From an uncultured archaeon (GTDB lineage: Archaea > Iainarchaeota > Iainarchaeia > Iainarchaeales > 0-14-0-20-30-16), in assembly GCA_964480435.1 (NCBI GenBank), contig CAYZSS010000020.1, forward strand, positions 1-15,497: a stretch of 15,497 nucleotides of DNA, read 5' to 3'. The notes beneath the pieces are model-generated. The model saw only the letters and a program-made list of their open reading frames with translations, made no database searches and was not told the DNA's origin. Position numbers and translations under genes: made by a program. This document shows, piece after piece, positions 474-15,497 of this stretch. Each line of letters begins with the position of its first letter. The stretch's first letter is position 1.

Positions 474-491
474 ATTTCTTCTTCTTATTTT

Positions 492-1484: not shown

Positions 1485-1582
1485 ATTACCATTATTTTCA
1501 AAAAAGCATATAAAACCCCGTAACAGATGTTACAACCTTTTAAAAACCTTTGTAGCCCCTTTATTCTCAGAGGTGATGCTAT

Positions 1583-1778: not shown

Positions 1779-1795
1779 GCTTCCTTTATTCTTTT
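1768..1795 (+). terminator. hairpin plus T-rich tract between convergent genes
   Basis: GGGAAGC (1768-1774), loop TTAG, GCTTCC (1779-1784), followed by TTTATTCTTTT. It spans the TAG of the HTH gene and abuts the stop of trm56. Function is inferred only. Confidence 0.3.
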
Positions 1796-2307
1796 AAAGT
1801 ATTTCTAAAGCCTTTTTTTATCTTCATCTTTGCGTCCTTGTAGGTTTTCTTTAGCTCTTTCCCTTGTTGTAGCCTATCTAAAAATACTGCCAAAGCAGCA
1901 ATCTCTGAATGCGGTTGGTTTCCCACTGCAACATTATAATCTGCAATTTTATAAACATCTCCAGGTACTTTTTCAGCCCCTGCAAAAACAACTACATTTT
2001 CTTTTTTCAAGGCTTTAAATTGTTTTTCAAAATTAGGAAGATTTATACCAAACATAGTTAAGTGAACTATTTTGAATCCTTCTTCTTTTTTTTGCAATAA
2101 ATAAGCAATAAAATCTTCTGCATATTCTACTGAAAAATTACCACCCCATTCAGCAGTGGTTCTTTTTATAGATTCTTCAAAAGAGTTATCCCTTTGGCCA
2201 TAATAAACCAGTTTATCTGCACCAAAAGCACGAGACACCAAGGCACAATGAGTTGTTACTCTTATATCCCTAAAAGCCCTGTGTCCATATCTAAAAACAA
2301 TTAACAT
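1786..2307 (-). CDS. trm56: tRNA (cytidine56-2'-O)-methyltransferase, SPOUT family (aTrm56)
   Basis: 173 aa. The N-terminus YGHRAFRDIRVTTHCALVSRAFGAD and the block GAEKVPGDVYKIADYNVAVGNQPHSEIAALAVFLDRL closely match the conserved aTrm56 pattern (RLGHR..[34 protein letters not shown]). Confidence 0.88.
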   Translation of the reverse strand: MLIVFRYGHRAFRDIRVTTHCALVSRAFGADKLVYYGQRDNSFEESIKRTTAEWGGNFSVEYAEDFIAYLLQKKEEGFKIVHLTMFGINLPNFEKQFKALKKENVVVFAGAEKVPGDVYKIADYNVAVGNQPHSEIAALAVFLDRLQQGKELKKTYKDAKMKIKKGFRNTLKE

Positions 2308-2329
2308 CTAATCAACTCTTACTTACATA

Positions 2330-3376: not shown

Positions 3377-3385
3377 TACAGACCA

Positions 3386-3847
3386 CTATTCTACTTTTTC
3401 TTGTTTTTTACTAATATTGTTCATATAGAAATACAATTTATTTAGATTATCAGTAAGTTCTGCTTCTTGTCTAATAAGTATTTCATATTCTTTTTGCAAT
3501 TTTATTTTTCTTTCCGTTAATGTTTTTGTAATGTCAGTAAATTCTTTTTCAATCATTATATCATTACCTATTACAAATAAAGCATTATTTATTTTTTCAG
3601 GGAATTTCAAAGAAACATAAACTCCATTTCCTAAATTTATCATTCCCTGTTCTTCTTTATTTCCTTTTAAAGCATCAATATTTGCTAAAGTACCATCTAA
3701 ACCAATTAAAAATTGTTCTACTTGTGCTTTTCTAGATAATACTGAATTCAAATTTTTTCTACTCATCCCAATTATATTTTTTGCCATTTCGGGAGTCATT
3801 TGAATTTTTTTTACTTCCTGTTTAACATTTTCTGTTTTTTCTGCCAT
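3386..3847 (-). CDS. pfdA: prefoldin alpha subunit
   Basis: 153-aa coiled-coil/beta-hairpin/coiled-coil protein in the conserved eif6-pfdA-ftsY position. GGAGGT SD 6 nt upstream of the ATG. Confidence 0.8.
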   Translation of the reverse strand: MAEKTENVKQEVKKIQMTPEMAKNIIGMSRKNLNSVLSRKAQVEQFLIGLDGTLANIDALKGNKEEQGMINLGNGVYVSLKFPEKINNALFVIGNDIMIEKEFTDITKTLTERKIKLQKEYEILIRQEAELTDNLNKLYFYMNNISKKQEKVE

Positions 3848-3874
3848 AAAAATACCTCCAAAATAAAAATAATT

Positions 3875-4534
3875 TCACTCTCTAAAGATTTCATCAAGTC
3901 TCATTAACTCATAACCAGTTGTGTCTTCTCCAACCATTAAACCTTTAGAATTAACTAACAAGCCACTAGATACAAATGATTCCCCATAATTTATGGTCCC
4001 TACATTTCCATCAACCTTAAACAAATTTTTTACTTTTTCAAATTCAGTTTCTTTTATACTTGCTCCACAAACAAAAGCCATATTAGTTGCTGCTACAACA
4101 GACCCCACTAATTCAGTATTGCATAAATTAAAAGAGTCATAATCTAAACCCATAAAAGCAGATATTTCCTTTTTACCATCATCATTAATCATTTTACTCA
4201 ATAATAAATTATTTTTATTTACTGCAATCATATTCCCCACAGCATGATAACTATTAAGCTTTAAGGTATTCAACCCAATATCTTCAAAAAAAGCTAGTTC
4301 TTTATCAGTAGTTATTTTTGAAATCACTACTTTTTTATTATATATCTTTGAAAGAACACCCAGCAAATTTGACTCACCTATTGTTGCCTTTATTGTTTCC
4401 ACTTCAAAGACATCTTTTACAAGCTCTTCAAACTTTGCAGAAGCATCAATAGGAATTAATGCTATTTTGTCAGACACGGCGCAAAAAATACCTATGCTTG
4501 AAAATGATTTAAAATTCGTTTTTTTAATATGCAT
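3875..4534 (-). CDS. eif6: translation initiation factor 6 (aIF6)
   Basis: The pentein-repeat-like sequence and the N-terminus MHIKKTNFKSFSSIGIFCAVSDKIALIP match the aIF6 pattern (F.G.p.IGv......d...lvP). It has conserved synteny after rpl31e. The ORF track starts 9 nt earlier at a GTG (4543). I prefer ATG 4534 because it gives a homolog-like N-terminus. Confidence 0.88.
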   Translation of the reverse strand: MHIKKTNFKSFSSIGIFCAVSDKIALIPIDASAKFEELVKDVFEVETIKATIGESNLLGVLSKIYNKKVVISKITTDKELAFFEDIGLNTLKLNSYHAVGNMIAVNKNNLLLSKMINDDGKKEISAFMGLDYDSFNLCNTELVGSVVAATNMAFVCGASIKETEFEKVKNLFKVDGNVGTINYGESFVSSGLLVNSKGLMVGEDTTGYELMRLDEIFRE

Positions 4535-4635
4535 AAAAACCACTTTTTATACCCAAGAAGTCAATTTTGTTTTTTAAAATTGCTTTGTTGACAAGCAAGT
4601 GCATAAATATAATAAAGTTAAGAGAAAGAAAACTC

Positions 4636-5058
4636 TTAAACTTTTTGTTTTTCTTTTATTCCTTTTAATTCTTTTTTATAATTTTTTTCTACTGTTTTTA
4701 CTTCTTTAGTTTTTTCTTTTTTTACTTCTTTTTTTGGTTCTTCTTTTTTATCAGGCTTTGTTTCTTTTTTTACTTCTTTTTTTTCTTCACCTTTTTCTAA
4801 AAAATCTTTTAATTCTTTTGAATCCGCCAAAAATACCCTTAAACTTTTATCTCCAACAATAGTTACTTCTACTTTTGTTGGACTTTCTGCTTTTCCTCTT
4901 GCCCAAATAAAGTTATTAACACTATTATCCAATGCATAATCTGTAGTTCTTAGGTGTTTTAGCATTTCTCTTTTTAGAGCTCTCATTGCGAAAGTAGCCC
5001 TTCTTTTTCTGTTCTTTCCAAGAACATTAAATCCAACTTTAATTGTTTTTGTATTCAT
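4636..5058 (-). CDS. rpl31e: 50S ribosomal protein L31e with a long K/E-rich C-terminal extension
   Basis: The first ~88 aa look like L31e (RKRRATFAMRALKREMLKHLRT...NNFIWARG). Synteny is rpl39e-rpl31e-eif6. GGTGAT SD 3 nt upstream of the ATG. Residues ~88-140 form a low-complexity KKEVKKE-type tail. Confidence 0.85.
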   Translation of the reverse strand: MNTKTIKVGFNVLGKNRKRRATFAMRALKREMLKHLRTTDYALDNSVNNFIWARGKAESPTKVEVTIVGDKSLRVFLADSKELKDFLEKGEEKKEVKKETKPDKKEEPKKEVKKEKTKEVKTVEKNYKKELKGIKEKQKV

Positions 5059-5165
5059 AATATCACCTTATATACTGGAAATAAGTAATTTTTCTAAAAA
5101 AGAAAAATTCTTAAGTCCCTGAAACTTTTTTGCTTCATGCAAAAAAGTTTTCTTGGATAATATCC
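5059..5165 (-). repeat. copy C of the recurring intergenic hairpin element (rpl39e-rpl31e spacer)
   Basis: Sense strand: TGA-GGATATTATC-CAAGAAAACTTTTTTGC-ATGAA-GCAAAAAAGTTTCAGGGACTTAAGAA...TATAAG-GTGATATTATG. There is a 12-bp stem (5122-5133 / 5139-5150) and a second 9-bp A/T stem (5087-5095 / 5101-5109). The core 5108-5155 matches copy B nearly base for base. A degenerate copy (GGATATTATC) of the rpl31e SD-start (GTGATATTATG) lies at the upstream edge. Confidence 0.65.
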
Positions 5166-5351
5166 TCAATATTTTCCAATTACTCTATTATATTCGTGTC
5201 CTAATTCTGTTCTTCTCCAGTGTCTCTTTCCTTTCTTATTCCAGATTTTTTTTCCTGCTTTTTGCATAACCCAAACAGGGGCTGCTGAAACACCTTGCTT
5301 TATTTTCTTTCTTTGTGAGATTAAAAATTCCTTTATTCCTGTGTCTTTCAT
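5166..5351 (-). CDS. rpl39e: 50S ribosomal protein L39e
   Basis: 61 aa with the L39e core ...APVWVMQKAGKKIWNKKGKRHWRRTELG. GGTGAT SD 3 nt upstream of the ATG. Position upstream of rpl31e is conserved. It has a short extra C-terminal extension (HEYNRVIGKY). Confidence 0.85.
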   Translation of the reverse strand: MKDTGIKEFLISQRKKIKQGVSAAPVWVMQKAGKKIWNKKGKRHWRRTELGHEYNRVIGKY

Positions 5352-5399
5352 TATATCACCATTTATTTCTTATTAAGAAACCATTTTACATTAGTAAAT

Positions 5400-5822
5400 T
5401 TATTTCTTATCCATAGCTTTCTTTACTTTATGGGCTATAGAATCCAAATATTTTCTTCCTTCGGTAGTAATTGCTCTACCATCTTCAGTTTTCTTCAAAT
5501 AACCTAATTTTTCTAAATCTTGTGCACAGTGTCTAGCAATTGATCCAGAACCCTTACAAAAGTGCTCAGGCTCAATACCATTGTTCTTTTTTCCACCATA
5601 AAGAATAGTTAAAACATTTGTAGTTATTTTTCCTCTAACATAAAACTTTCTTAAAACTGCTGCTAATCTAGTATAATACCAATCACTTTTATCTGGGCTT
5701 CTTTCTCTGTTTACCCCTGTTTTTGCAAAAAGAGTAAAACTTGGTTCTTTAACTTTTCCCTTCAGATCTTTTGCGGTTTCCGCGATTAGTTTACTATGAT
5801 GTATGTCATAAACACTTACCAT
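5400..5822 (-). CDS. rps19e: 30S ribosomal protein S19e
   Basis: VYDIHHSKLIAETAKDLKGKVKEPSFTLFAKTGVNRERSPDKSDWYYTRLAAVLRKFY...YGG...GSGSIARHCAQDLEKLGYLKK matches the S19e family pattern. The ORF-track start (5831) is a GTG that is really part of the SD GGTGA (5832-5828). ATG 5822 lies 5 nt downstream of that SD and gives the homolog-like MVSVYD start. Confidence 0.9.
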   Translation of the reverse strand: MVSVYDIHHSKLIAETAKDLKGKVKEPSFTLFAKTGVNRERSPDKSDWYYTRLAAVLRKFYVRGKITTNVLTILYGGKKNNGIEPEHFCKGSGSIARHCAQDLEKLGYLKKTEDGRAITTEGRKYLDSIAHKVKKAMDKK

Positions 5823-5903
5823 TATATTCACCTTTCTTAAAATTTTATAAACTATTGGCTCAATAACCCTTATAAATAGATATATAGACTATAGGAAGCA
5901 GAC

Positions 5904-5944
5904 CCTTTAAAAATATTACCCTTCTTTACCTTTAAAAAATATTA
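5904..5944. promoter_or_regulatory. two direct copies of a CCTTTAAAAA(A)TATTA box in the divergent rps19e / ORFan control region
   Basis: cctttaaaaatatta at 5904-5918 and cctttaaaaaatatta at 5929-5944, spaced 25 nt apart. They are TATA-box-like A/T cores preceded by CC. Similar CCTTTTAAA strings sit upstream of the HTH gene (about 1536-1549) and the MBL gene (7673-7683). Role (BRE/TATA or regulator site) not determined. Confidence 0.3.
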
Positions 5945-5958
5945 TGCACAAGATAGAA

Positions 5959-5965
5959 TTATATA
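5959..5965 (+). promoter_or_regulatory. TATA-like box about 25 nt upstream of the ORFan ATG (leaderless-type arrangement)
   Basis: TTATATA is centred about 25 nt upstream of ATG 5987. No GGTG/GGAG SD lies between it and the start codon, unlike most other genes in the window. Confidence 0.35.
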
Positions 5966-5986
5966 CCTTTTTTCTCGTTATTATAT

Positions 5987-7663
5987 ATGGCTGAATTAAA
6001 ACACAGTTTTAAAGCAGATCATTTTGGTTCTCATTTTAAAGATTTACATGAACAAAGCGGTACAGCCCATAAAATCCTTTTGGAAAAAGAGGGTATGCCC
6101 CACAGCATAGAAAACATCGTTCGTTTTTATGCCGAAAAAAGACCAAAGATGTTTGAGTATTATATCAGGCAAATGGCCACAAAAAAAGAAATAAAGTCAT
6201 TGGCAAACCTAATTGTATTTTTTAGAGGTGGAAATGAGGAACATAAGAAAATTTCCTTAGAAATATTTAAAATTGTTGCAAGACATAACAGAGAAATAGC
6301 AGAAGAGCTAATTAAAGAAATCAACGGTATTAATCAGGGACTATCTAAACCCACAAGCCCTAAGCCTTCTAAAGCGCCTGAAGAACCAAAAAAAGGAACT
6401 ACCCCACACCCTGTGGGGCCTCTCAAAGCAGATAAGGGCAGACCAGACAAGGAAACTATTAAACCCGTGGCAGAGATAAAGGCACCTGAAAGACCAAAGC
6501 CAAAATCAGGCCCAGAAAGAAATAAAAGAAAGGCGGAAATAAAAACGACTATAATTGAGATACACAGAAGATATGGATTAACCCCCTTTAACACATTAGA
6601 CAGAGCAGTATCCATTTTAGAACAAATAGAATACAACACAGGTGGAAAAATCGATTTAGAAAAACTGACCATCAGAGATGTAACTACAGGATTACAATTT
6701 TTAATTATGAGAAATGAGGAACATATTTTAGATATAGCAGGAAAAACAAAAGTAAACGACGTATCATACACCCTAGGCAACATATACAATCAGAAAGGAA
6801 ACCAAAGAAAATATGTTTGCTGTTATACTACAAAAAATGGCGAAACAAAAATCACTATTTATTATAAAAGTGGATCTTCAGACAATTGGCGCCTTCTCCC
6901 TTTAACAGGTGATGCTGATTCACCAGGGCACTTCTACAAATCCGAAGCCGGCGAAGAATTTATTAATGCTCCTTGGCAGATTCAAAGAATACTTGACTCT
7001 AAACCATCCATATCAGTGGAAGATGATGTTTCTGAAGAATTTACTTTACTTTCCCCTGAACAAGATAAAATTTGGTCAAAAGGAGGGGTAAAATCAAGAA
7101 AAATCGCAGGAAACAGAGAGAAATTAAAAATTGATACATCAATTAAATTCCCTGGTTGGAATACTTTAGATATAACCAGACAAGAAAACCTCCCTGATTT
7201 TTCAAAGGTAGTAGCAGTATGGCCAGCACAATCTGAATTATACGGCACTGTAAAGAAGGTTAGTATCCTTAGTAAGAGTGGGTCTTATACTTGGACATTT
7301 AGTTCCTGCGCAGAAGGAGTATTCTTTTCAGGAATAGAGGTCACAAACGGAGATATTTCAAAACATGGGTTACCACAAATACCTGCCATCCACGACCCAA
7401 AAGGATTACATTACTTACTAATAACACAACCCAGAGAATACCAAGGCCAGTTATTTAGAAGACTAATAAGAGCAGAAGCAAAATATAGAAAACAAGGAAA
7501 AAGTGAAGCCGCGGACAGAATTAAAAAAATATTAGCAGTGTATGGCAGCAATGTAGATCCCAAAGACATCAAATTCGGGTATGAGAATGTAATGAAAATA
7601 TTGTTAATGCACCCTTTTATCAAAGCAATTCAAGAGCCAATAAGAAAAATTACGGGCCATTAA
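5987..7663 (+). CDS. 558-aa hypothetical protein (ORFan; helical N-domain, P/K-rich linker, ~370-aa C-terminal domain)
   Basis: This is the longest ORF in the window and is uninterrupted. Only short, low-complexity shadow ORFs overlap it. I recognise no catalytic or family motif, no signal peptide and no TM segment. Residues ~120-185 form a Pro/Lys-rich linker (SKPTSPKPSKAPEEPKKGTTPHP...ERPKPKSGPERNKRK). Confidence 0.75.
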   Translation: MAELKHSFKADHFGSHFKDLHEQSGTAHKILLEKEGMPHSIENIVRFYAEKRPKMFEYYIRQMATKKEIKSLANLIVFFRGGNEEHKKISLEIFKIVARHNREIAEELIKEINGINQGLSKPTSPKPSKAPEEPKKGTTPHPVGPLKADKGRPDKETIKPVAEIKAPERPKPKSGPERNKRKAEIKTTIIEIHRRYGLTPFNTLDRAVSILEQIEYNTGGKIDLEKLTIRDVTTGLQFLIMRNEEHILDIAGKTKVNDVSYTLGNIYNQKGNQRKYVCCYTTKNGETKITIYYKSGSSDNWRLLPLTGDADSPGHFYKSEAGEEFINAPWQIQRILDSKPSISVEDDVSEEFTLLSPEQDKIWSKGGVKSRKIAGNREKLKIDTSIKFPGWNTLDITRQENLPDFSKVVAVWPAQSELYGTVKKVSILSKSGSYTWTFSSCAEGVFFSGIEVTNGDISKHGLPQIPAIHDPKGLHYLLITQPREYQGQLFRRLIRAEAKYRKQGKSEAADRIKKILAVYGSNVDPKDIKFGYENVMKILLMHPFIKAIQEPIRKITGH

Positions 7664-7674
7664 ACAAATAGCCC

Positions 7675-7681
7675 TTTTAAA
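7675..7681 (+). promoter_or_regulatory. TATA-like box about 26 nt upstream of the MBL-hydrolase ATG
   Basis: TTTTAAA within gcccttttaaacc. A second TTTATAA lies at 7684-7690. No SD precedes ATG 7704. The start context TTATTATATATGG (7695-7707) is identical to that of the ORFan (5978-5990). Confidence 0.3.
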
Positions 7682-7703
7682 CCTTTATAATCTTTTATTA
7701 TAT

Positions 7704-8444
7704 ATGGTTACTTTTTTGAAAGCACTTAAAAAAGATAAAGAGTCCACAAAAGATATTGAAAAGATTAGCATAATTAAATATTGGCATTCTTTTGTTTTAA
7801 TTAGTTTTTTTGATAAGCAAATATTATTTGATCCTTATTTTGGAAAAAACACGCCATGTAATTTTGACATAACTGACAAACTTGATATTATTGTACAAGA
7901 TATTCCTAAACTAGATGCCATTTTTATTACTCATGAACACTTTGATCATTTTGATAAAGAGGCCGTTGAATTTTTAGCAAAAAGGGATAATTGCCCAGTA
8001 ATTGCTCCCCAGATAGTAATTAATCAACTGGATATTGAAGAACATTTAAAAAGAATAGTAAAAACTGAAGATAAAGAAAAAATAGCAAATATTGATTTTT
8101 CTGTTTTGCCTGCACAACACCCACAATCACAATACCCAGTAAGTTTTCTTTTAAGATATAAAGATAAAGAAATTTACTTTGCCGGGGACACCTTTGATCA
8201 AAACTTAGATATAAAACCAGATATTGCAATTGTTCCTTGTGGAGGAGTTTTTACAATGGATTTATTTGAATTCATTGCTTTTGCAAGAAAAACATCACCA
8301 AAAGTAATTATCCCAATACATTACAACACATTTGGTTTAATAAAAACAAATATGGATAAATTAAAAGAAAGAGCATCAGAAAAACTAAAAAATACTCAGT
8401 TACTTATTCTAGAAAATAATGTAAACACAAAAATAGACGTATAA
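7704..8444 (+). CDS. metallo-beta-lactamase-fold metal-dependent hydrolase (COG2220/UlaG-like)
   Basis: 246 aa with the HxHxDH motif ITHEHFDHFD. Downstream ligand candidates are AQHPQ, FAGDT and IPIHYNTF. The N-terminal YWHSFVLIS...ILFDPYFG resembles the GHS.F.i...ilIDP.f start of this family. Confidence 0.82.
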   Translation: MVTFLKALKKDKESTKDIEKISIIKYWHSFVLISFFDKQILFDPYFGKNTPCNFDITDKLDIIVQDIPKLDAIFITHEHFDHFDKEAVEFLAKRDNCPVIAPQIVINQLDIEEHLKRIVKTEDKEKIANIDFSVLPAQHPQSQYPVSFLLRYKDKEIYFAGDTFDQNLDIKPDIAIVPCGGVFTMDLFEFIAFARKTSPKVIIPIHYNTFGLIKTNMDKLKERASEKLKNTQLLILENNVNTKIDV

Positions 8445-8484
8445 AAAATTAAAATAAAAAAAATAAAAAAGAAATAAAAAACCC
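8445..8484 (-). terminator. oligo-T tract downstream of pfdB (end of the superoperon)
   Basis: Sense strand after the pfdB stop: GGGTTTTTTATTTCTTTTTTATTTTTTTTATTTTAATTTT (T6, T6, T8). Archaeal termination typically uses oligo-T runs. Inferred only. Confidence 0.4.
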
Positions 8485-8850
8485 TTATTTCTTATCCTTT
8501 TTCTCTGGTGCTTTTACTACTTGTTTTGCAGAGTTATTTTGTTCCGCATCAAATTTAGCTTTTAATTCTTTTATTTTTGCGGTAACTATTTTTTCTTGAG
8601 TTTCTAAAGTTTTTATTCTCAACTCTAAAGATTTTTTATTATCTTCAAGTTCTTTTATTAATTCTGCTTTTGGTTTCTTTACTAAAATCAAACCCATGTT
8701 TTTGTAACCGTGAGTTTCTTTAGTTTTATTTAATTCATCAGTATTTTCTTTTATTCTATCTATCATACCTTTAATATTCATTACTTGTGAATTAATCATA
8801 TTTAATTGATTACTGTATTGATTAAATTCCATTATCTCTTTTTGATCCAT
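8485..8850 (-). CDS. pfdB: prefoldin beta subunit with a short K-rich tail
   Basis: 121-aa coiled-coil protein with a central hairpin region (GYKNMGLILVKK). It holds the terminal position of the exosome superoperon, as in other archaea. GGGGGAG SD 5 nt upstream of the ATG. Confidence 0.78.
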   Translation of the reverse strand: MDQKEIMEFNQYSNQLNMINSQVMNIKGMIDRIKENTDELNKTKETHGYKNMGLILVKKPKAELIKELEDNKKSLELRIKTLETQEKIVTAKIKELKAKFDAEQNNSAKQVVKAPEKKDKK

Positions 8851-8869
8851 AAAATCTCCCCCAATATCA

Positions 8870-9091
8870 TCATTTATTTGAATAAATATTATCTATACTC
8901 CCTAATTTTTGTAATAATGAATTTACGTTTGCCCTTAGAGCAGTGTAATCTTTTGCAGTAGTAATTATTTCTAAGCAATCTTTTTTTAGTTTAAATTCCA
9001 TTTTTGTTCTACTATTAATTTCTTTTTCCTGAGATATTATTTTATATATATCTTCAAAGTTTTTATCAATAATTATTTTCATTTCAGGCAT
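8870..9091 (-). CDS. pcc1: KEOPS complex subunit Pcc1
   Basis: 73 aa. LEIITTAKDYTALRANVNSLLQKLG matches the Pcc1 signature (l.i.i.A.D..ALRA.lNsylr). Position between Brix and pfdB is conserved. GGGGTGA SD (9102-9096) lies 4 nt upstream of ATG 9091. This start overlaps the Brix gene by 13 nt. An alternative ATG at 9082 forms an ATGA overlap with the Brix stop. Confidence 0.72.
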   Translation of the reverse strand: MPEMKIIIDKNFEDIYKIISQEKEINSRTKMEFKLKKDCLEIITTAKDYTALRANVNSLLQKLGSIDNIYSNK

Positions 9092-9534
9092 TCTGTCACC
9101 CCAAAGTTAAGTGCTTTTTCTTTTCCTTTCATAAGTGTCAGAATTTCTTTTTCTTCAACTACTTTATAATTTGATTTAACGCTTTCAATACCAAGTAGTT
9201 TAAATAACTCTTCGTATTTTTTGCTTTTCAAATCCAGTTCTATTTCACTTGGATTATATTTTTTTATTGATAAATTAAAATAATTTATATCATACTTTTT
9301 TTCTAATTTGAAGCTACCTTTTTCTACAGAATATATTAAAATTCTTTTAGGATTACCCTTATATTCTGAAACGGAAATCAAATTTTTATACCCTTCATAT
9401 TCCATGTATTCTGCAAGTTCTTTTACAGAACTTTTTCCTCTAACGAAATAAGCTGCATCAAAAATTGAAGTTGCTTGCCTAACAAACTTCCTCAAATTTT
9501 TTCCTGGTTTTCTTGAAGTAGTTATTAAATTCAT
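9079..9534 (-). CDS. Brix-domain (Imp4-like) ribosome biogenesis protein
   Basis: MNLITTSRKPGKNLRKFVRQ matches the archaeal Brix N-terminus (liTTSRkPs..tr.f). Superoperon position is conserved. The ORF-track start (9543) is a TTG. ATG 9534 gives the homolog-like N-terminus. No clear SD. Confidence 0.8.
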   Translation of the reverse strand: MNLITTSRKPGKNLRKFVRQATSIFDAAYFVRGKSSVKELAEYMEYEGYKNLISVSEYKGNPKRILIYSVEKGSFKLEKKYDINYFNLSIKKYNPSEIELDLKSKKYEELFKLLGIESVKSNYKVVEEKEILTLMKGKEKALNFGVTECLK

Positions 9535-9561
9535 ATAGATCAATAAAAAACAAAAAAAGAG

Positions 9562-9699
9562 TTATATTGCTTTTACTGTTTTTGCAACTTTTTGTCTCTT
9601 TTTTTCTACAACCCTAAATGCACATTGTGGGCATCTTACTTCTCCTTCTATAAGGTTGTCAAATTCTCCACCACATTTAACGCATTTATATCTGCCCAT
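9562..9699 (-). CDS. rpoP: DNA-directed RNA polymerase subunit P (Rpo12/RpoP)
   Basis: Not in the ORF track (45 codons). I translated it manually: MGRYKCVKCGGEFDNLIEGEVRCPQCAFRVVEKKRQKVAKTVKAI. Two CxxC pairs (C6/C9, C23/C26) form a zinc ribbon, with the typical RCP.C..R pattern. It holds the conserved position between rpl37ae and Brix. The ATG overlaps the rpl37ae stop as TAATG. GAGTGA lies 6 nt upstream. Confidence 0.82.
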   Translation of the reverse strand: MGRYKCVKCGGEFDNLIEGEVRCPQCAFRVVEKKRQKVAKTVKAI

Positions 9700-10061
9700 T
9701 ATTCTTCACTCTCTTTTTTCTTTTCTTTTTTTGGCTTCTTTTTTGGTTTTTCTACTTCTACTGCTTCGCCTTTTTCTTCTTCTAATACTAATTGATCAAT
9801 TATTTTTTCAGTTAGTTTTGTGCTTTTCCCTACAGTACTCTTTAGTGTCTTACCCATTCTTGTTTCTGCTTCATAAGCTCCACCGCTAAATTTCTTTCCA
9901 CAGTATTCACAATCAAAAACACCTGATGCCAATCTGCTAACTTTTTTCATTCCGCAGTATGGGCAAACTTGTTTTTTAAATTTGTAAGTTTCTGCCACCA
10001 CATCATATTTTCTTCTAACTTTTCTACCATATCTTGATCCAAATCCACTTGATAATGCCAT
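9699..10061 (-). CDS. rpl37ae: 50S ribosomal protein L37Ae (eL43) with a K/E-rich C-terminal extension
   Basis: GSRYGRKVRRKYDVV...CPYCGMKKVSRLASGVFDCEYCGKKFSGGAY is the L37Ae zinc ribbon. GGTGAT SD 3 nt upstream of the ATG. The last ~35 aa form a low-complexity tail (EEEKGEAVEVEKPKKKPKKEKKKESEE). Confidence 0.9.
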   Translation of the reverse strand: MALSSGFGSRYGRKVRRKYDVVAETYKFKKQVCPYCGMKKVSRLASGVFDCEYCGKKFSGGAYEAETRMGKTLKSTVGKSTKLTEKIIDQLVLEEEKGEAVEVEKPKKKPKKEKKKESEE

Positions 10062-10140
10062 AATATCACCCTATATTTAATGGCCCTGTTTGATGTTTTT
10101 GCGATTTGAGCACAAACTCAAACTTGGCCATAATATCACC
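10057..10140 (-). repeat. copy A of the recurring intergenic hairpin element, flanked by a perfect 14-nt duplication of the rpl37ae SD+ATG
   Basis: gccataatatcacc occurs at 10057-10070 and 10127-10140. The 56-nt core (10071-10126) has hairpins at 10095-10117 and 10105-10122. A 21-codon mini-ORF (10066-10131) ends with the TGA inside the downstream GGTGAT. Confidence 0.7.
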
Positions 10141-10142
10141 AC

Positions 10143-10928
10143 TTATAGTTTTTCTATAATTTTCCTTATTTCTTTATATTTTTTCTTAGATGTTTTTATT
10201 ATCTCTTTTAACTCTTCTAAAGTAAAAAAGCCTTTTTCTCCTTTTTGTAAAGCACAAATATTCAAATTATCATCCAGAGTTATTGATAATCTTGCCTCTG
10301 TTGCATAATCTTCATTTAAATCTGGGTCCAATATTATTTTATTACTTACCTTAGAATAAGTAGTCATCACAGGCAGTTTATCTAAAACAAGGTTTCCACT
10401 TGTTTCCCCTTTAATAACATTATATTCTTTATCTAATTTTGGCATTTTTGTTGTTTTTAGTGCTGCTATTGCTGCCAAATAGCAAGCATCAAATAAATTA
10501 CCATCATGGTTCAAAACATACATATCAACATAAACAAAGCATGCTTTTTCCCCTGGCACTAGGCACAATTTTTTAAAATCTATTGTTTTCGCTTCCCTTA
10601 TTCCTCTATCAACAACTCTTCCTAATTCAATTGATGTTTCATTAGGAGGACCAGCATTAAAATCAGGAGATCCAATTGGACTAAGTTCCACACCTACTGT
10701 TATACCCCCTTCTTCAGGAGAATCAGGATATGGCTGTCCAATTTCTATTTTTGTACCCGCATAAACTAATGTGTTTCCCAATTGTACTTTTGCACAACCT
10801 GCTGCATTTTTTAGGAAGCCAGTCTCAATTTTTATTTCTCTATATTCATCATCTTTTCTTCCTTTTGTTCTTTCGCCTTTGGCTAATTTATTTTTTGTTA
10901 ATTCAATATCATACACATAATTTAACAT
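10143..10928 (-). CDS. rrp42: exosome complex component Rrp42 (RNase PH-like, non-catalytic)
   Basis: 261-aa RNase PH fold (R.DGR-like KGRKDDEYREIKIETG..., AIAALK). It immediately follows rrp41 in the conserved rrp4-rrp41-rrp42 order. Confidence 0.9.
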   Translation of the reverse strand: MLNYVYDIELTKNKLAKGERTKGRKDDEYREIKIETGFLKNAAGCAKVQLGNTLVYAGTKIEIGQPYPDSPEEGGITVGVELSPIGSPDFNAGPPNETSIELGRVVDRGIREAKTIDFKKLCLVPGEKACFVYVDMYVLNHDGNLFDACYLAAIAALKTTKMPKLDKEYNVIKGETSGNLVLDKLPVMTTYSKVSNKIILDPDLNEDYATEARLSITLDDNLNICALQKGEKGFFTLEELKEIIKTSKKKYKEIRKIIEKL

Positions 10929-10940
10929 TATCTCAACTCC

Positions 10941-11642
10941 TTACTTTAAAGTTTTAAATTTTGACTTCAAAGCATCCACTTGCATTCCTCTTATTTCTTG
11001 ACACTTTTCTTTAGCTATTTTTATTGCTTTGTCATATTCATCTTCACTTAATACTCCATCCATTTGCAATAGAACAACCTCTTCACTATTTGGAAGCATA
11101 GCAAAAGCCATATCCACAGCATCAGGAGCATCTTCTTCAGATTTAGTCAAATCAGCAAGTATGTTTCCATTTGCTTTACCAACTGAAACTGAAGCAATTA
11201 AATCTTTCATTGGTATTCCCGCATCTGCTAAAGCAACAGCAGCAGCAGTTAATGCAGATACTCTTGTTCCTGCATCAGCATCTAAAATTTGAGCATAAAC
11301 ATCAACTGTCATACCAGGAAATTCTTCAAGCATAACTGTATGTGACAAAGCCTCTCCAACAACTTTTGATATTTCAATATCTCTTCTTCCAGGTTTAGGG
11401 TTCTTTCTTTCAGAAACTGAAAAAGGAGCCATCCTGTATGTGAATGTTACTCTTCCCTTTGTTGGATCTGACAAATGTTTTGGTAATAATTCTCTTGGTC
11501 CATAAACCGCCACAATTACCTTGTTATGACCCCATTCTAAATACGCTGAACCATCTGCTCTACCTATCACAGAAGGTATTATTTTTATTGGTCTTAATTC
11601 GTTTAAATCTCTACCATCAATTCTTTTCTTTACCATATTCAT
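10941..11642 (-). CDS. rrp41: exosome complex exonuclease Rrp41 (RNase PH)
   Basis: RIDGRDLNELRPIKI, GSAYLEWGHNKV and ILDADAGTRVSALTAAAVALADAGIPM are the RNase PH / Rrp41 phosphate-binding and active-site blocks. SD spacing (AGGTGT directly abutting the first ATG) suggests the third-codon ATG at 11636 may be the true start. Confidence 0.92.
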   Translation of the reverse strand: MNMVKKRIDGRDLNELRPIKIIPSVIGRADGSAYLEWGHNKVIVAVYGPRELLPKHLSDPTKGRVTFTYRMAPFSVSERKNPKPGRRDIEISKVVGEALSHTVMLEEFPGMTVDVYAQILDADAGTRVSALTAAAVALADAGIPMKDLIASVSVGKANGNILADLTKSEEDAPDAVDMAFAMLPNSEEVVLLQMDGVLSEDEYDKAIKIAKEKCQEIRGMQVDALKSKFKTLK

Positions 11643-11648
11643 ACACCT

Positions 11649-12254
11649 TTATTTTTTAACATTCATTTTATCTAAAACATCACTTACCTTATTTGTAAGA
11701 TTATCTTCGTGGCTGTATTCTTCAATAAAAGAAATTATCTCTTTTACTTTTTCCATATTTTCTCCAATTACGTACACCAGTCCATTTAATCCAATAACTA
11801 ATCTTGAGTTTGTTTTTGTCTCTATTAATGTTTGCATAGATTTATTTTTTCCTATCAATCTTGCAACTTTTCTAGGATTTACTTTAACTAACTCCCCACC
11901 AGTTAATTTACTAATTATTTCGATATCTATATCCTTTACTTCATTTACTGTTTTTACTCTTAGTAAATAAATATCGTAAAGTTTTGCTGTTTGATTTCTT
12001 TTAAAAAATACCCCTTGTTTGTGACTGTTTATGTCAAGCAAATAAACATAGTTATCTTCGTTTTGAACAACCCCGACAATTATATCGCTTTCTTTAGGAA
12101 CATATTTTCCAGAAATAGGTATTACTTTTACCCCATCATCTTTATACAAAATACCCAAATATTTTGAGTATGCTTTTCCATTTTTCTTGTAGGTTCCAAA
12201 ACCAGTTTTTGTATTTTCCTTAATTTCGTCTCCAGGAAATATTATCTCTTTCAT
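11649..12254 (-). CDS. rrp4: exosome RNA-binding subunit Rrp4 (N-terminal domain, S1 and KH)
   Basis: N-terminal IFPGDEI. S1-like DIIVGVVQNEDNYVYLLDINSHKQGVF. KH-like VNPRKVARLIGKNKSMQTLIETKTNSRLVIGLNGLVYV. Position upstream of rrp41 is conserved. GGTGAT SD 5 nt upstream. At 201 aa it is shorter than typical Rrp4. Confidence 0.85.
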   Translation of the reverse strand: MKEIIFPGDEIKENTKTGFGTYKKNGKAYSKYLGILYKDDGVKVIPISGKYVPKESDIIVGVVQNEDNYVYLLDINSHKQGVFFKRNQTAKLYDIYLLRVKTVNEVKDIDIEIISKLTGGELVKVNPRKVARLIGKNKSMQTLIETKTNSRLVIGLNGLVYVIGENMEKVKEIISFIEEYSHEDNLTNKVSDVLDKMNVKK

Positions 12255-12281
12255 CTTTCATCACCTTTTGGTTTTTATCAT

Positions 12282-12965
12282 TCATTCAAAAATTACTTGA
12301 CCGGAAGTTAGGCCGTAAACTCCATTTGTAACTTCTTGTTTCATTCCGCTACTTACTTTTATTTTTATGTACAGGCCATCTCCCCATTTTTTTTCTACTA
12401 TTTCAAATTTATTCAAATAACCTAACACTTTATTTGCAAAACTTATTGGTACTTTCATTGACATTGTTTCTTGATCAAAAGACATTGGCAGAATTGGTTT
12501 TAATTTTTCAATTATTGATTCCAATTGTTTTTTCATTGGCTTTGTAGGGTCCAATGTTACTCTTGCTTGATCCATGGCTAATTCTATTCTTTGTGGAGGG
12601 TGTGGTGTTTTTGTAAGAGGATTTATTGAATTTTTTGAAATATATACTATTGCTTCTTTTCTTAATTGTTCAATTTTTTTTCTTTTTTGTTCTGTTGTTA
12701 ATTCCACTCTTCCCTCTAGAATAATTTCTTTAGCAATAGGCAAAATTTCTTCAGTTTCAAAAGCATCAAGAAGGTCTTTAGAACTTGCTTTTTCACCTTT
12801 ATTTGAGTCTTTATATACATCCTCAGATGCTAACAAATTACTTAGTAATGGTTCTATAGGTTTTCCACCCCTTACTTCTAAAGCAAGATCAGCATCAACT
12901 AAGATTTCAAAATGTTTTCCATTTTTATCATAATTTGCAATTATTGCTTTATCAACTGTTACCAT
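12282..12965 (-). CDS. SBDS-family ribosome maturation protein (Sdo1 orthologue)
   Basis: 227 aa. The N-terminal FYSH-like region (AIIANYDKNGKHFEILVD...EDVYKDSNKGEKAS) and the position between psmA and rrp4 are characteristic of archaeal SBDS. Confidence 0.88.
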   Translation of the reverse strand: MVTVDKAIIANYDKNGKHFEILVDADLALEVRGGKPIEPLLSNLLASEDVYKDSNKGEKASSKDLLDAFETEEILPIAKEIILEGRVELTTEQKRKKIEQLRKEAIVYISKNSINPLTKTPHPPQRIELAMDQARVTLDPTKPMKKQLESIIEKLKPILPMSFDQETMSMKVPISFANKVLGYLNKFEIVEKKWGDGLYIKIKVSSGMKQEVTNGVYGLTSGQVIFE

Positions 12966-12977
12966 TAAATACCACTT

Positions 12978-13685
12978 TTATTTTTTTAGATATTCTTCTA
13001 GGTTGTATACATTTGCTTTTTTGTCTGTTATTATCCCTAATTTAACTCTATTTAAATCAACTTTCTCTTTATCATAGGTTTGTTTCAAAGCATTTACACA
13101 AAGTTTAACCGCGTCTTTTTCAGAAACAGTGTTCTTGTAATTTTTCTCTAAAAAGACCATTGCTTTTTGCCTATTTCTACCAATTGCCAGTGCAGAATAT
13201 TCTGCTACAGATCCAGATGGTTCTGTTTCATAAATATGACATTCACTATCTTTTCCAACAATTATAAATGATACCCCGTATGGTCTCATACCACCATATT
13301 GTGTGCAGGTTTGTTGTATTCCACCTATTTTTTTAGCTAAAAAAGATATTTCTATTGATTCCCCATAAATCATTCTATTTTCTTGAACCAGTTCTCTAGA
13401 AAATTCAACTATTTTTCTTGCATCCCCTGCCATACCGGCGGAAATCATGTAAATTTGGTCATCAATTTTAAACACTTTTTCAAGGGTATCAGAAATTAAC
13501 AATTTAGAATCAAAATTTAAATCTGCTAAAAATACAATACCATCTTTATACTTCAATGCAATAGCGGGAGTCCCCTTATCTATTATTTTTGTAGCATATT
13601 CTACTTGGTATAGTTTTCCCTCTGGACTAAATACAGTTATAGCCCTATCATATGCCATTGCCGGTGCCTTAGAAGCAGTATACAT
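12978..13685 (-). CDS. psmA: proteasome subunit alpha
   Basis: YDRAITVFSPEGKLYQVEYA is the alpha-subunit N-terminal signature, followed by GMAGDAR and a typical Ntn-fold core. It is the first gene of the superoperon. GGGGGAT SD 5 nt upstream of the ATG. Confidence 0.95.
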   Translation of the reverse strand: MYTASKAPAMAYDRAITVFSPEGKLYQVEYATKIIDKGTPAIALKYKDGIVFLADLNFDSKLLISDTLEKVFKIDDQIYMISAGMAGDARKIVEFSRELVQENRMIYGESIEISFLAKKIGGIQQTCTQYGGMRPYGVSFIIVGKDSECHIYETEPSGSVAEYSALAIGRNRQKAMVFLEKNYKNTVSEKDAVKLCVNALKQTYDKEKVDLNRVKLGIITDKKANVYNLEEYLKK

Positions 13686-13831
13686 AGTTTATCCCCCAAA
13701 AAAATTAAAAATGAAAACAATAACAAAAACAGAATTTTATGTTATTATACTTATATATTTTATAGTAGAGTTTTTTTAAACCTTTCGAGCCTTTTTAAAA
13801 AAAATACTCTATAAGAAGCTCCAGATACTTT

Positions 13832-14017
13832 TTAACTAGTTGATGCTGGAACTGCAGCCACCGGTTGAGCAGCTGCCACCTTAGTAGTTCCTTTAAACAT
13901 TGGTTTTACTACTGCGATAAGAACAACAGCAGCAATTGCTAGAATTAGGACCATATAAAGGGTATTCCACTCAGACTGCCCTTTCTTTTCTGTTAGGAAT
14001 ACCTTTATATCTCTCAT
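13832..14017 (-). CDS. small class-III-signal-peptide (archaeal type IV pilin-like) protein
   Basis: 61 aa: MRDIKVFLTEKKG|QSEWNTLYMVLILAIAAVVLIAVV... It has a short charged leader, a KG/Q prepilin-peptidase-type site and then an 18-residue hydrophobic helix. It resembles the QxSxExxxL class III signal family. AGGTGAT SD 5 nt upstream of the ATG. Confidence 0.6.
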   Translation of the reverse strand: MRDIKVFLTEKKGQSEWNTLYMVLILAIAAVVLIAVVKPMFKGTTKVAAAQPVAAVPASTS

Positions 14018-14094
14018 TCAAATCACCTTTTGATTTTAATGCGCCTGAAACTTTTTGCCTTTTTAGCAAAAAGCTTTCTTGTCATTCAAATCAC
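14014..14094 (-). repeat. copy B of the recurring intergenic hairpin element, flanked by a perfect 13-nt duplication of the pilin SD+ATG
   Basis: tcattcaaatcac occurs at 14014-14026 and 14082-14094. The 55-nt core (14027-14081) has an 8-bp hairpin, CTTTTTGC/GCAAAAAG (14051-14073). A 20-codon mini-ORF (14023-14085) ends with the TGA of the downstream AGGTGA. Confidence 0.7.
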
Positions 14095-14598
14095 TTACTT
14101 CTTAGGACCTATAGTAACAAAACACATTGTATCTTCAGCGCCTAATTGAGGGCTGCATTTACTAAAAACATCATAGGCCGCAGGTATAGTACCATCAGTA
14201 CTACAGAAAGCATACAAAGTTACTTCTTTATCACTTTTTCCACTATAAATTATACCATCAGTCGCCGAAAAAGAGGATAAAGTAGATGCAGCAGGTTCAC
14301 AAAATATAATCTGTGATTCATCTAAACCTACCCCTGCTTGAGTAATCTGTTGTGATACAATTGCATTATTTTTTTCTGTAAAAGTAACATTTTTAGATTG
14401 TGAGGTATACGGACTACTATAAGCAGTTTTTACCAAATCTTTTACTGCGGAATCTGGTTTACTTGATGGATTGAAGTTAATCATACCCATAATATTCAGT
14501 AGTAACATTAATATTGCCAAAGATACAATTGCAGCAATTAGAATTTTAAATACACTAAAAGCCTGCCCCTTCTGACTTTTAATTTTTAAGTTTATCAT
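14095..14598 (-). CDS. type IV pilin-like protein (class III signal peptide, Cys-containing globular domain)
   Basis: MINLKIKSQKG|QAFSVFKILIAAIVSLAILMLLLNIMGMI has a charged leader, a KG/Q site and a hydrophobic helix. A ~125-aa S/T-rich domain with 4 Cys follows. The longest ORF starts at 14613, but GGAGGT (14611-14606) lies 7 nt upstream of ATG 14598, which gives the canonical short leader. Confidence 0.6.
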   Translation of the reverse strand: MINLKIKSQKGQAFSVFKILIAAIVSLAILMLLLNIMGMINFNPSSKPDSAVKDLVKTAYSSPYTSQSKNVTFTEKNNAIVSQQITQAGVGLDESQIIFCEPAASTLSSFSATDGIIYSGKSDKEVTLYAFCSTDGTIPAAYDVFSKCSPQLGAEDTMCFVTIGPKK

Positions 14599-14685
14599 AA
14601 TTATAACCTCCATGAGTCATATATAATAAACCAATCTTATTTAAAAAAGTAACTCATCCCAATATTATAAATTGAGTGATGTATA

Positions 14686-15327
14686 ATGCGGATTCCAGAG
14701 ATACAACGAAAAATAGCTGTTTTGTTATTATCTGAACCAAAAACAACAGAAGAGATTAACAAGCAGTTAGATGTGGGGTATGCCCAGGTAACAAAAGAAC
14801 TAAATAACATGCTGAAGCAGAACCTTATTAAGAAAATTGATGGATTCCCAACAAAATACACTCTTGAAGACTATATTATTGAAACAATTAAAAAACGAAA
14901 GAAAGTTGCAGAAAGCGACGCATATAGACTAAAATTAAGGGCAATCATAGAATTACAAGGAATTGACAAAGACCTGGTAAAAATAAACCTAGATAAAATA
15001 GGCAATATGCTAAAAAATGAAAAAAACTTCACAATTTATGATTCAAAAATATCAGAAATACTTGAACAAGATAATATGTATTTTGGGTATTTAGATTTAA
15101 CACTTACTTTAAAAAACTTTTCAACATTAATTTATTTCGTTAGTTACTACACACCAACAAGTGTAGAAGTAATATCTCCTGAAAAATACGATCTATCCAT
15201 GTTTGAATTACAAGATGGAATCATGGATTTGTCAATGTTAGTTCAAAGATATACTTCTGAAATACAGAAGAGATTAACTCAGGAAGAAGTAAAGAAAATG
15301 CAAGACCTGCTTTACAAAGTAAACTAA
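14686..15327 (+). CDS. winged-helix (ArsR/MarR-like) DNA-binding protein with an uncharacterised C-terminal domain
   Basis: The N-terminal ~65 aa (IQRKIAVLLLSEPKTTEEINKQLDVGYAQVTKELNNMLKQNLIKKIDGFPTKYTL) have the wHTH helix-turn-helix-wing pattern. GTGAT SD 5 nt upstream of the ATG. The gene is divergent from the pilin-like genes. The C-terminal ~140 aa are unrecognised. Confidence 0.6.
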   Translation: MRIPEIQRKIAVLLLSEPKTTEEINKQLDVGYAQVTKELNNMLKQNLIKKIDGFPTKYTLEDYIIETIKKRKKVAESDAYRLKLRAIIELQGIDKDLVKINLDKIGNMLKNEKNFTIYDSKISEILEQDNMYFGYLDLTLTLKNFSTLIYFVSYYTPTSVEVISPEKYDLSMFELQDGIMDLSMLVQRYTSEIQKRLTQEEVKKMQDLLYKVN

Positions 15328-15442
15328 AGCAAGTAGGAAAGAGAATAGCACTAGTTATTCTAATTTGATTCTTAGTTACGCGAAGCACTTTTCTTTTTGG
15401 GTAACTTACACTTTTTCTTTCGTAAAAGAAAAAGGGCAGCGG

Positions 15443-15497
15443 GGGAAGGTAGCTCAGTCCGGAAGAGCAATAGGCTGAAGACCTATGTGTCGAGGGT
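15443..15497 (+). tRNA. tRNA-Phe (anticodon GAA), truncated by the window edge
   Basis: Manual cloverleaf: acceptor GGGAAGG, TA, D-stem GCTC/GAGC with loop AGTCCGGAA, anticodon stem ATAGG/CCTAT, loop CTGAAGA (U33, GAA at 34-36), variable GTGTC, then the start of the T-stem GAGGG. The 3' half lies outside the window. Confidence 0.85.

Follow-up and report, generated by a model that had tools for sequence, protein, structure and literature searches.

Why should the start signal of a ribosomal protein gene stand twice in one intergenic spacer? The question is raised by the junction between rrp42 and rpl37ae on a 15,497-nucleotide (nt) contig of an uncultured archaeon of the Iainarchaeota lineage (GenBank assembly GCA_964480435.1, contig CAYZSS010000020.1, positions 1 to 15,497; hereafter the window). 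A preliminary description, made from the sequence alone, had noted this duplication around an intergenic hairpin and offered two readings: a small insertion element that targets ribosome-binding sites (RBSs) and leaves a long target-site duplication, or a dedicated intra-operon regulatory or processing RNA. Comparison with related genomes suggests that the 70 nt at positions 10071–10140 probably represent the insertion of a mobile DNA hairpin repeat, small and non-autonomous, that is peculiar to a clade of Iainarchaeota. We infer the mobility of this repeat from comparative patterns only.

Both genes lie on the minus strand, along which every feature of the junction is read. The upstream gene, rrp42 (10143–10928), was identified as encoding an exosome subunit of the RNase PH family by its open reading frame (ORF), by Pfam RNase_PH and RNase_PH_C matches on an identical product and by homologues named Rrp42. 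The downstream gene, rpl37ae (9699–10061), encodes 120 amino acids (aa) with a Pfam Ribosomal_L37ae match. A 14-nt sequence, GGTGATATTATGGC, which spans the Shine–Dalgarno (SD) sequence, the start codon and the next two nucleotides (ATG+2), is present in two perfect copies (10140–10127 and 10070–10057) at a spacing of 70 nt, as originally proposed. The upstream copy, here called T1 (10127–10140), comes after the rrp42 TAA codon (10145–10143) and a GT dinucleotide. Being 2 nt past the rrp42 stop, it sits at the native SD position, which is that of the single RBS at the empty sites described below. The downstream copy, T2 (10057–10070), contains the functional SD and start codon of rpl37ae (ATG at 10061–10059). 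The 56 nt between them consist of a core hairpin (10085–10126; CAAG-TTTGAGTTTGTGC-loop-GCAAAAACATCAAA-CAGG), assigned by alignment to a class that we call A-type, and a tail, GCCATTAAATATAG (10071–10084), that fits the family tail consensus and contains stop codons. T1 forms the 5′ base of a long hairpin, and the first 5–6 nt of the tail pair with its ATGGC. None of 300 shuffles of the downstream flank equalled the flanking repeat of this copy, designated copy A, and the RNA fold of its core has a z score of −3.8 relative to shuffled sequences.

The window carries a gene cluster encoding proteasome-alpha, SBDS, Rrp4, Rrp41, Rrp42, Rpl37ae and RpoP and, farther along, Rps19e, Rpl39e, Rpl31e and eIF6, at roughly 30% GC. 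Matches to its Rrp42 are found on metagenome contigs only, with identities of 80%, 78% and 81% for the closest relatives and around 56% for those that follow. The 80% cluster, which represents a sister species, includes proteins named ‘Candidatus Diapherotrites archaeon’ and ‘Candidatus ainarchaeum sp.’. We label the window species W and its relatives S1 (loci L006–L011 and the metagenome-assembled genome (MAG) GCA_964565125), S2 (L012 and L117) and S4 (L126). The rrp42–rpl37ae spacer is 11 nt long in S1 (L006), in S4 and in two outgroup contigs at 56% identity (L127 and L128), and deleting 70 nt from W gives exactly TAA, 11 nt and ATG. The same junction in S2 (L012) has a 75-nt spacer that holds a core of a different type, B-type, in the opposite orientation, together with a T1 that lacks an ATG. 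Because W, S1 and S2 are mutually 78–80% identical, two independent gains at this junction are the parsimonious inference. These comparisons indicate that the ancestral junction was an 11-nt spacer and that the unit was gained in the window lineage.

Other junctions have changed in the same manner. The SBDS–rrp4 spacer and the starts of rps19e and of a lactamase-fold gene are filled in S1 and empty in W, and the psmA–SBDS spacer, also empty in W, carries two units (C-type, a third core class, then A-type) in another relative. Strains also differ in unit number: L006 has one unit where L082 has two identical ones, and L110 has one where L107 has three, with further hairpins nested in the loop of one L107 unit. 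Tandem units in L118 and L101 have different cores between identical repeats of tail and T, which argues for repeated insertion into a regenerated site and not for slippage alone. Units of this family are therefore gained, lost and tandemly amplified between close relatives.

Recurrence within the window, which had been proposed for two further spacers, is real. The pattern GCAAAAA-N1-9-CAGGNNC-N0-1-TTAA occurs three times, always on the minus (coding) strand, against 0.01 occurrences expected, and related copies are confirmed at 14014–14094 and 5055–5167. Copy B (14014–14094), between genes for 172-aa and 61-aa proteins, comprises T1 (14082–14094), a B-type core (14044–14081), a tail (14027–14043) and T2 (14014–14026), and matches our covariance model with 62.5 bits. 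A perfect 13-nt repeat of its downstream SD and ATG, GTGATTTGAATGA, flanks it at a spacing of 68, a feature that had gone unmentioned in the preliminary description. The orthologous copy in the sister species shows compensatory changes in the stem. Copy C (5055–5167), between rpl39e and rpl31e, likewise has a B-type core (5118–5155; 54.6 bits; fold z = −5.5), followed by a tail (5068–5078) and T2 (5055–5067), and preceded by a decayed T1 that has no ATG (5156–5167). An extra 39-nt hairpin, AAGAATTTTTCT-TTTTT-AGAAAAATTACTT, lies between its core and tail (5079–5117) and may be a nested insertion of another repeat type. We also observed like nesting in L107 (1897–2012), inside the loop of an A-type core. 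Also on the minus strand, the rpl31e–eIF6 spacer holds a candidate fourth, degenerate copy that had been overlooked (4553–4590; CAACAAAGCAATTTT-AAAAAA-CAAAATTGACTTCTTGG, with flanking TTTATGCA repeats). It is a weak covariance-model match (16.9 bits), in a spacer of 92 nt in the window versus 46 nt in the sister species.

Every well-preserved copy is built in the order T1–core–tail–T2. Both flanks, T1 and T2, directly repeat the sequence of the local gene boundary (T), made up of the SD, a spacer and ATG+2 at gene starts and of the final codons with the stop at gene ends. The tail matches the reverse complement of T imperfectly and therefore folds with T1 and the core into one long hairpin, which is also the predicted minimum-energy structure. 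This complementarity explains the ‘CAGGNNC(A)TTAA’ block on which recurrence had first been noticed: it is the end of the core followed by the complement of the SD–ATG region. Direct repeats are significant in 12 of 19 copies and an in-register inverted copy is present in about 10 of the 19; the perfect flank repeat ranges from 2 to 21 nt. T differs between loci, being GGTGATATTATGGC in copy A, GTGATTTGAATGA in copy B, TGTGATTTTATGGA at rpl31e of S1, GGTGTTATCTTTATGGA in L055 and ATGAAAGAG in L006-1798 (with the tail TTCTTTCA). Targets other than RBSs differ as well: TATTAGAAAAGAGTTTTTTGT in L043, AAACTTATTTCTTCT in L019 and ATATTTACCTTCTTAC in L093 are perfectly repeated over 21, 15 and 16 nt, respectively.

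Gene starts reveal a further layer. The tail and T2 of 23 start-site copies share one consensus module of roughly 30 nt, NCCAnTAAAATAT-AAGGTGTGAT-TTTATGG, and T2 is closer than T1 to this consensus in nearly every copy. Native RBSs at element-free sites look different (GGTGAATATAATGG, GGTGATGAAAGATG and GGTGAAAACATG). The same unit of about 88 nt (ATGAAAGAG-core-TTYTTTCAAATRAGGTGTTAATTATGAAAGAA) stands before rrp4 in S1 and before an unrelated CHASE2/cyclase-like gene in Ca. ainarchaeum STB_43, two genes that both begin with ATGAAAGA. The element thus brings its own SD module; the final 5 nt at a minimum (ATG+2) are in every case specific to the locus and present in duplicate. In 14 of 21 copies the core begins 5 nt past the A of the ATG in T1.

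The cores themselves are conserved as hairpins. The 16 B-type cores align over 38 columns with 99% of stem positions paired, and 5 of the 13 base pairs show compensatory changes, a result matched by none of 500 shuffles and by no slid register. The covarying positions had been left free in the search pattern, and therefore this result is not circular. All 16 copies also keep a bulged G or A at one fixed place. Six A-type cores from different loci (CAAGTTTGA...TCAAACAGG), the type to which copy A belongs, align with 86.9% of their long stem paired, again with no shuffle among 500 as good. The C-type core reads CAAGAAGATGATTTA...ATCACTTCAGG. All three types share the ends CAAG...CAGG, which in the fold form a C–G pair, an AA/AG internal loop and a G–C pair; in the alignments the start is CAAG, or CAAC or TAAG, and the end is CAGG. 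The preliminary description had proposed that copy A holds mutually exclusive hairpins. Of this pair only the long hairpin is conserved, as the alternative, TTTGAG/CTCAAA, is 70.6% paired in the same six A-type copies and is equalled by 125 of 500 shuffles. Rfam searches at the gathering score yielded only a tRNA fragment in the window, nothing was found at E ≤ 10 in positions 9900–10300, and five related loci likewise had no match; ARAGORN gave no match in the window.

The distribution of the family is narrow. A scan of one genome per species (185,579 species) returned 67 pattern matches in total, and true hairpin copies were present only in the ‘uncultured archaeon’ MAG GCA_964565125 (6 contigs) and in ‘Candidatus ainarchaeum sp. 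STB_43’ (3 contigs), where they score 51–62 bits with the covariance model. The bacterial matches (about 50) and those in other archaea are single, have no hairpin and score 17–28 bits. A stricter pattern applied to metagenomes found 45 copies on 39 contigs from a few samples, and the covariance model finds 61 matches above 31 bits in 100 kb of these contigs. A viral origin was considered and rejected, as the best of seven pattern matches in a scan of IMG/VR (35 bits) falls within coding sequence and lacks a flank repeat. We conclude that the family comprises lineage-restricted interspersed hairpin repeats of Iainarchaeota/Diapherotrites archaea with at least three core types.

Position and orientation also bear on the nature of the units. 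Twenty-one of 51 non-redundant copies lie within 70 nt upstream of a gene start on the same strand. Cores are in sense orientation at gene 5′ ends and antisense at 3′ ends, where T consists of the last codons and the stop (L043, L019 and the end of rps12 in L093). The rpoA′′–rpl30e–rps12–rps7 operon of L093 has a copy in every spacer, sense before starts and antisense after stops. Going away from the gene, one always meets T, then inverted T, the core (with the CAGG end proximal) and T again. Operon ends and larger intergenic regions hold clusters of different core types in alternating orientation (L041, L086, L093, L095 and L101). This pattern of orientations and arrays points to a DNA-level mobile element and not to a sense-strand RNA motif.

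We then consider the short ORF that opens at the T1 start codon of copy A. This mini-ORF runs, as had been reported, from the ATG at 10131 to a TGA at 10068–10066 (10066–10131, minus strand; 21 codons plus the TGA; peptide MAKFEFVLKSQKHQTGPLNIG). Its stop is the TGA within the real GGTGAT, 4 nt ahead of the true rpl37ae ATG, and the mini-ORF of copy B likewise ends in the TGA of the real SD. A stop placed in the SD had been suggested to preserve translational coupling, and this arrangement holds for copies A and B and not for the family at large. The stop lies 4–5 nt before the ATG, in the SD, in only 5 of 21 start-codon copies; it is 10–19 nt before the ATG in 11, in the loop in three, 29 nt upstream in one and absent in one, and none overlaps the start. 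Copy C and the L012 copy have no upstream ATG and have lost the mini-ORF altogether. Inspection of the alignment shows that stop codons abound in the tails, covering as many as all three frames in TAAAATATAAGGTGTGA. A conserved leader peptide can be rejected, given that the predicted peptides are alike only where the DNA core is the same, range from 7 to 26 codons and lack an ATG in several copies. The mini-ORF of copy A arose incidentally from the duplication, and the family as a whole does not conserve it. In the SBDS–rrp4 spacer of L010 (976–1080), a public 34-aa ‘gene’ is the mini-ORF of a repeat unit.

These results largely bear out the insertion-element reading, with corrections. Empty 11-nt sites, an independent inverted insertion in a relative, dozens of copies found only in relatives and variable unit number all agree with it. 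The element is not strictly directed to RBSs, as some copies lie at gene 3′ ends or in intergenic multi-hairpin arrays. Nor is there a clean target-site duplication of fixed length, because the repeat spans 2–21 nt and the downstream copy, together with the ‘CAGGNNCATTAA’ block, forms the RBS module of about 30 nt that is shared between loci.

A working mechanism can be proposed. The unit would spread as DNA by copy-and-paste guided by structure and homology. A folded hairpin, probably single-stranded DNA at a replication fork, would be joined just after ATG+2, and pairing of the tail (..CCAT) with the target (ATGG..) would guide the choice of site. The folded unit would consist of core and tail, with or without the SD module, and the boundary would be re-copied after joining. 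As the unit would either bring its own SD module or re-copy the local one, the gene would keep an intact start. Joining could be the work of a recombinase of the HUH or tyrosine type that is specific for hairpins and encoded at another place in the genome, or of host template switching; a hairpin-specific recombinase seems likely because the core keeps asymmetric unpaired positions. The effect of insertion on expression would be close to neutral, with the decoy SD–ATG of T1 locked in the hairpin stem. Ribosomes leaving rrp42, should they restart at T1, would translate the 21-codon filler ORF and thereby open the hairpin, and the end of this ORF 4 nt before the true AUG would relay translational coupling. 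Such a relay is plausible for copies A and B and is not a family trait.

Several considerations weigh against a mobile DNA hairpin. All data are metagenome contigs. No transposase or recombinase was found beside any copy in the DNA of the related loci, Pfam searches of ORFs next to hairpin arrays included, and an all-against-all comparison of approximately 800 ORFs from related loci uncovered no multi-copy ORF, only orthologous housekeeping genes. The presence of copy B in both the window and the sister species, with compensatory changes, would also fit selection for function. Furthermore, no single model fits the long perfect locus-specific repeats (copies A and B and L043), the imperfect tail, which is always less perfect than the T1/T2 pair, and the shared RBS module. 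Target duplication by staggered cuts would yield the perfect locus-specific repeats of copies A and B and of L043, but neither the range of 2–21 nt nor the shared SD module. The hybrid T1/T2 pairs and the ATGAAAGA case agree with recombination, copy-choice or site-specific, through short SD/ATG homologies; the unrelated targets that are not RBSs do not. Hairpin-primed fold-back synthesis explains the inverted tail and predicts a perfect one, which is never seen. In its pure form, with the tail copied from T at each insertion, fold-back can be rejected, as tails are shared between loci and the L107/L110 tail is not complementary to the local T end. A pure model in which the RBS is always borne by the element fails as well, since gene-3′-end copies have unrelated and perfectly duplicated T sequences.

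What else could have produced such units? Spread without any element-specific machinery is a minority prospect in our estimation, although not a negligible one. Slippage and copy-choice template switching at SD (GGTGA) and ATG microhomologies would move the units, and fold-back synthesis would make the inverted tail. Crossover-like hybrids, in which T1 has the native SD and T2 the family SD, are what such a process would leave, as are the single unit found at two genes that share ATGAAAGA and tandem amplification between direct repeats, and the related loci revealed no enzyme. However, the CAAG/CAGG internal loop and the fixed bulge of the 16 B-type cores resemble a site recognized by a protein, the point of insertion varies little from ATG+2, and targets that are not RBSs have unrelated T sequences with no obvious microhomology to a donor. 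A classical MITE (a miniature transposable element with inverted repeats) is the least probable alternative. A transposase of the cut-and-paste or Cas1 type would mobilize it in trans, staggering its cuts by 13–15 bp and leaving a true target-site duplication of fixed length; casposases produce duplications of 14–15 bp. The perfect locus-specific repeats of 14, 13 and 14 nt in copies A, B and L006-8190 would suit this model, and removing one repeat plus the insert rebuilds the empty sites exactly. Yet perfect repeats vary from 2 to 21 nt across copies, no terminal inverted repeats exist apart from the hairpin itself, and the inverted copy of the target in the tail is foreign to such transposition. 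The greater nearness of T2 than of T1 to the family consensus, and the sharing of the SD module by unrelated genes, would be impossible by pure target duplication. In addition, neither a parent element nor an autonomous relative with the same termini was seen in about 270 kb of related DNA.

The proposal that these units are primarily a dedicated regulatory or processing RNA is not supported, given that cores occur in both orientations and that copies come and go between close relatives in essential operons. We regard it as improbable, only marginally less so than a MITE, that they form an intra-operon RNA module kept by selection, in which the hairpin and an alternative pairing of the tail to T1 or T2 would control translation or mark a site of mRNA processing or stabilization. 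Such a module would account for the strong covariation of the stem, for folds that are far stabler than shuffles (z = −3.8 and −5.5) and for a tail that by construction can pair with T1 or T2. The sense orientation of most start-codon copies, the closeness of tail stop codons to the real start and the retention of copy B in two species with compensatory changes are also in its favour. Covariation is equally expected, however, for a hairpin that is recognized as DNA. Two sister species and the outgroup have no unit between rrp42 and rpl37ae, which are an essential pair of genes, and at that very junction the L012 core is inverted; antisense cores occur at gene 3′ ends and alternating ones in arrays; and unit number differs between strains. 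Neither the mini-ORF nor the stop in the SD is conserved, and no Rfam match appears even at E ≤ 10. Secondary effects of the units on mRNA may nevertheless occur. A more far-reaching idea, to which we give about the same small chance as to passive spread, is that the units reflect an undescribed archaeal DNA-joining system in which the target would be picked by tail–target pairing and rebuilt as T, core, reverse complement of T, and T. This would be a locus-reprogrammable, guide-directed mini-transposon that uses start codons and SD sequences as landing pads and carries a portable RBS, and its chemistry would be unlike that of DDE, HUH ‘peel-and-paste’, Cas1 and integron recombination.

A mobile DNA hairpin of this kind can be compared with known repeats. 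Its nearest functional analogue is the mycobacterial interspersed repetitive unit (MIRU). A 2025 review (PMC12548453, citing Supply et al. 1997) describes MIRUs as apparently mobile, inserted at start codons and carrying an internal ORF coupled to the gene, with little effect on expression. Both families occupy start codons in operon spacers, and the core described here mostly begins at ATG+2. Tandem copy number of MIRUs varies between strains, as does unit number here (L082 versus L006 and L107 versus L110). The MIRU ORF overlaps the gene start by 4 nt, whereas the stop here lies 4–19 nt upstream in most copies and the ORF is often lost. MIRUs are bacterial, and the units here also occur at gene 3′ ends and antisense. 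MIRUs, to our knowledge, have no covarying hairpin at their centre.

The nearest structural analogue is the group of repetitive extragenic palindromic (REP) elements and the bacterial interspersed mosaic elements (BIMEs) and REPINs related to them. REP elements are described in PMC2817692 as imperfect palindromes of 35–40 nt with conserved unpaired positions, multi-copy and extragenic, located in operons and forming alternating clusters. The units here are similarly short, imperfectly palindromic, multi-copy and extragenic, and they too cluster in alternating orientation. They differ in that the GTAG head is absent, the cores instead having CAAG...CAGG ends, and in that no RAYT-like gene lies beside copies in related loci, in a search that covered copy neighbourhoods only. 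Moreover, REPs are not reported to duplicate an RBS or to carry an SD–ATG module, and the host here is a DPANN archaeon of about 30% GC. Among archaea, the MJRE1–3 repeats of Methanocaldococcus jannaschii, reportedly catalogued by Suyama, Lathe and Bork in 2005, are said to be short, AT-rich interspersed palindromes, located mainly outside genes and with a degree of coding potential. The units resemble them in these respects, by description only, and we know of no account of RBS duplication or start-codon targeting by MJREs.

Transposons of the IS200/IS605 group recognize a hairpin with unpaired bases, and an internal sequence at the foot of the hairpin pairs with the target to choose the site. 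The role proposed here for the tail in target pairing resembles that of these elements and of their hairpin-bearing derivatives (PATEs), a resemblance only. They insert without duplication at a fixed 4–5-nt target, whereas here the flanks are duplicated and the ‘guide’ varies by locus. The nucleotides 5′ of CAAG vary (GGC, TGA, GGT, GAT, GAG, TGT, TCT and TAC), so that no fixed target of the IS200/IS605 type is evident, and no TnpA or TnpB gene was seen in related loci. Integron attC sites are also folded, imperfect hairpins with extrahelical bases, in arrays with a regenerated site, hybrid flanks and stacked inserts. An attC identity was rejected on the grounds that inspection of the alignment shows no R′′/R′ boxes (RYYYAAC ... 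GTTRRRY) on either strand, that integrase and cassette ORFs are absent and that units are only about 70 nt long. A CRISPR array was likewise rejected: repeats of tail and T spanning 31–33 nt do occur in L118, L107 and L101, but the ‘spacers’ are hairpin core families and there are at most three units. Membership of the MITE class fails on fixed-length duplication and terminal inverted repeats. No account of a comparable element in archaea, DPANN included, came up in our literature search.

Some related loci contain a longer composite repeat that is distinct from the start-codon units (L041, L049, L095, L098, L101, L111, L112 and L113). A common 5′ flank, TTTTGGCAG(A/C)C(C/T)GTGC, precedes its B-type core at six or more loci, and 3′ of the core is a fixed series of hairpins (CAACAAAGC...GTTTGAGG, CCTGAAGTAGTTTG...CTTCTTG and GCCTTTT..AAAAGGC). 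L041 also has a 65-aa, Cys-rich (CxxC...HxxC) ORF with no Pfam match (6579–6776, plus strand) and hairpin doublets at 6343–6419 and 6761–6835. A small composite mobile element is one reading of this unit of roughly 490 bp; the other is simply a small gene within a spacer rich in repeats.

Several other features of the window were recorded. Rpl37ae (120 aa, 9699–10061, minus strand) and Rpl31e (140 aa, 4636–5058, minus strand) have long Lys/Glu-rich C-terminal extensions, that of Rpl31e arising from imperfect 24-nt tandem repeats (4683–4742). The genes beside copy B (172 aa, 14095–14613; 61 aa, 13832–14017; both minus strand) encode proteins with hydrophobic N-terminal segments and no Pfam match, perhaps small membrane proteins of the archaeal type IV pilin-like or another kind. 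A 558-aa ORF (5987–7663, plus strand) between the lactamase-fold gene and rps19e has a Pro/Lys-rich low-complexity stretch and no Pfam match. It is missing from the sister-species locus L006, where a 263-aa Kdo-like gene that the window lacks stands between the prefoldin-beta and lactamase-fold genes; the cluster is otherwise syntenic, and this spot in it is variable. A 17-nt direct repeat (ACCCTTTAAAAATATTA at 5902–5918 and ACCTTTAAAAAATATTA at 5928–5944) in the divergent intergenic region between rps19e and the 558-aa ORF looks like a duplicated promoter sequence of the type formed by a TATA box and a transcription factor B recognition element (BRE). Finally, the 5′ part of a tRNA gene (15443–15497, plus strand; Rfam RF00005, 34 bits) runs off the end of the window, and ARAGORN makes no call there because the gene is incomplete.

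The family described here is a small interspersed palindromic repeat with an unusual signature, which combines direct and inverted copies of the target with a portable RBS, and this signature occurs in a type of genome where such elements were not known. DPANN genomes are tiny and tightly packed, with operon spacers of about 11 nt, and almost any insertion into them should be lethal. The family shows one way for selfish DNA to persist under these circumstances: by duplicating the gene boundary or supplying an SD–ATG, it lets the gene survive. One practical consequence is that gene callers will mis-set starts and invent ORFs of 15–35 aa at unit sites. Conversely, variable unit number offers strain markers like those of MIRU typing by variable-number tandem repeats (MIRU-VNTR). 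If tail–target pairing directs insertion, the unit would be a minimal and naturally retargetable DNA insertion device.

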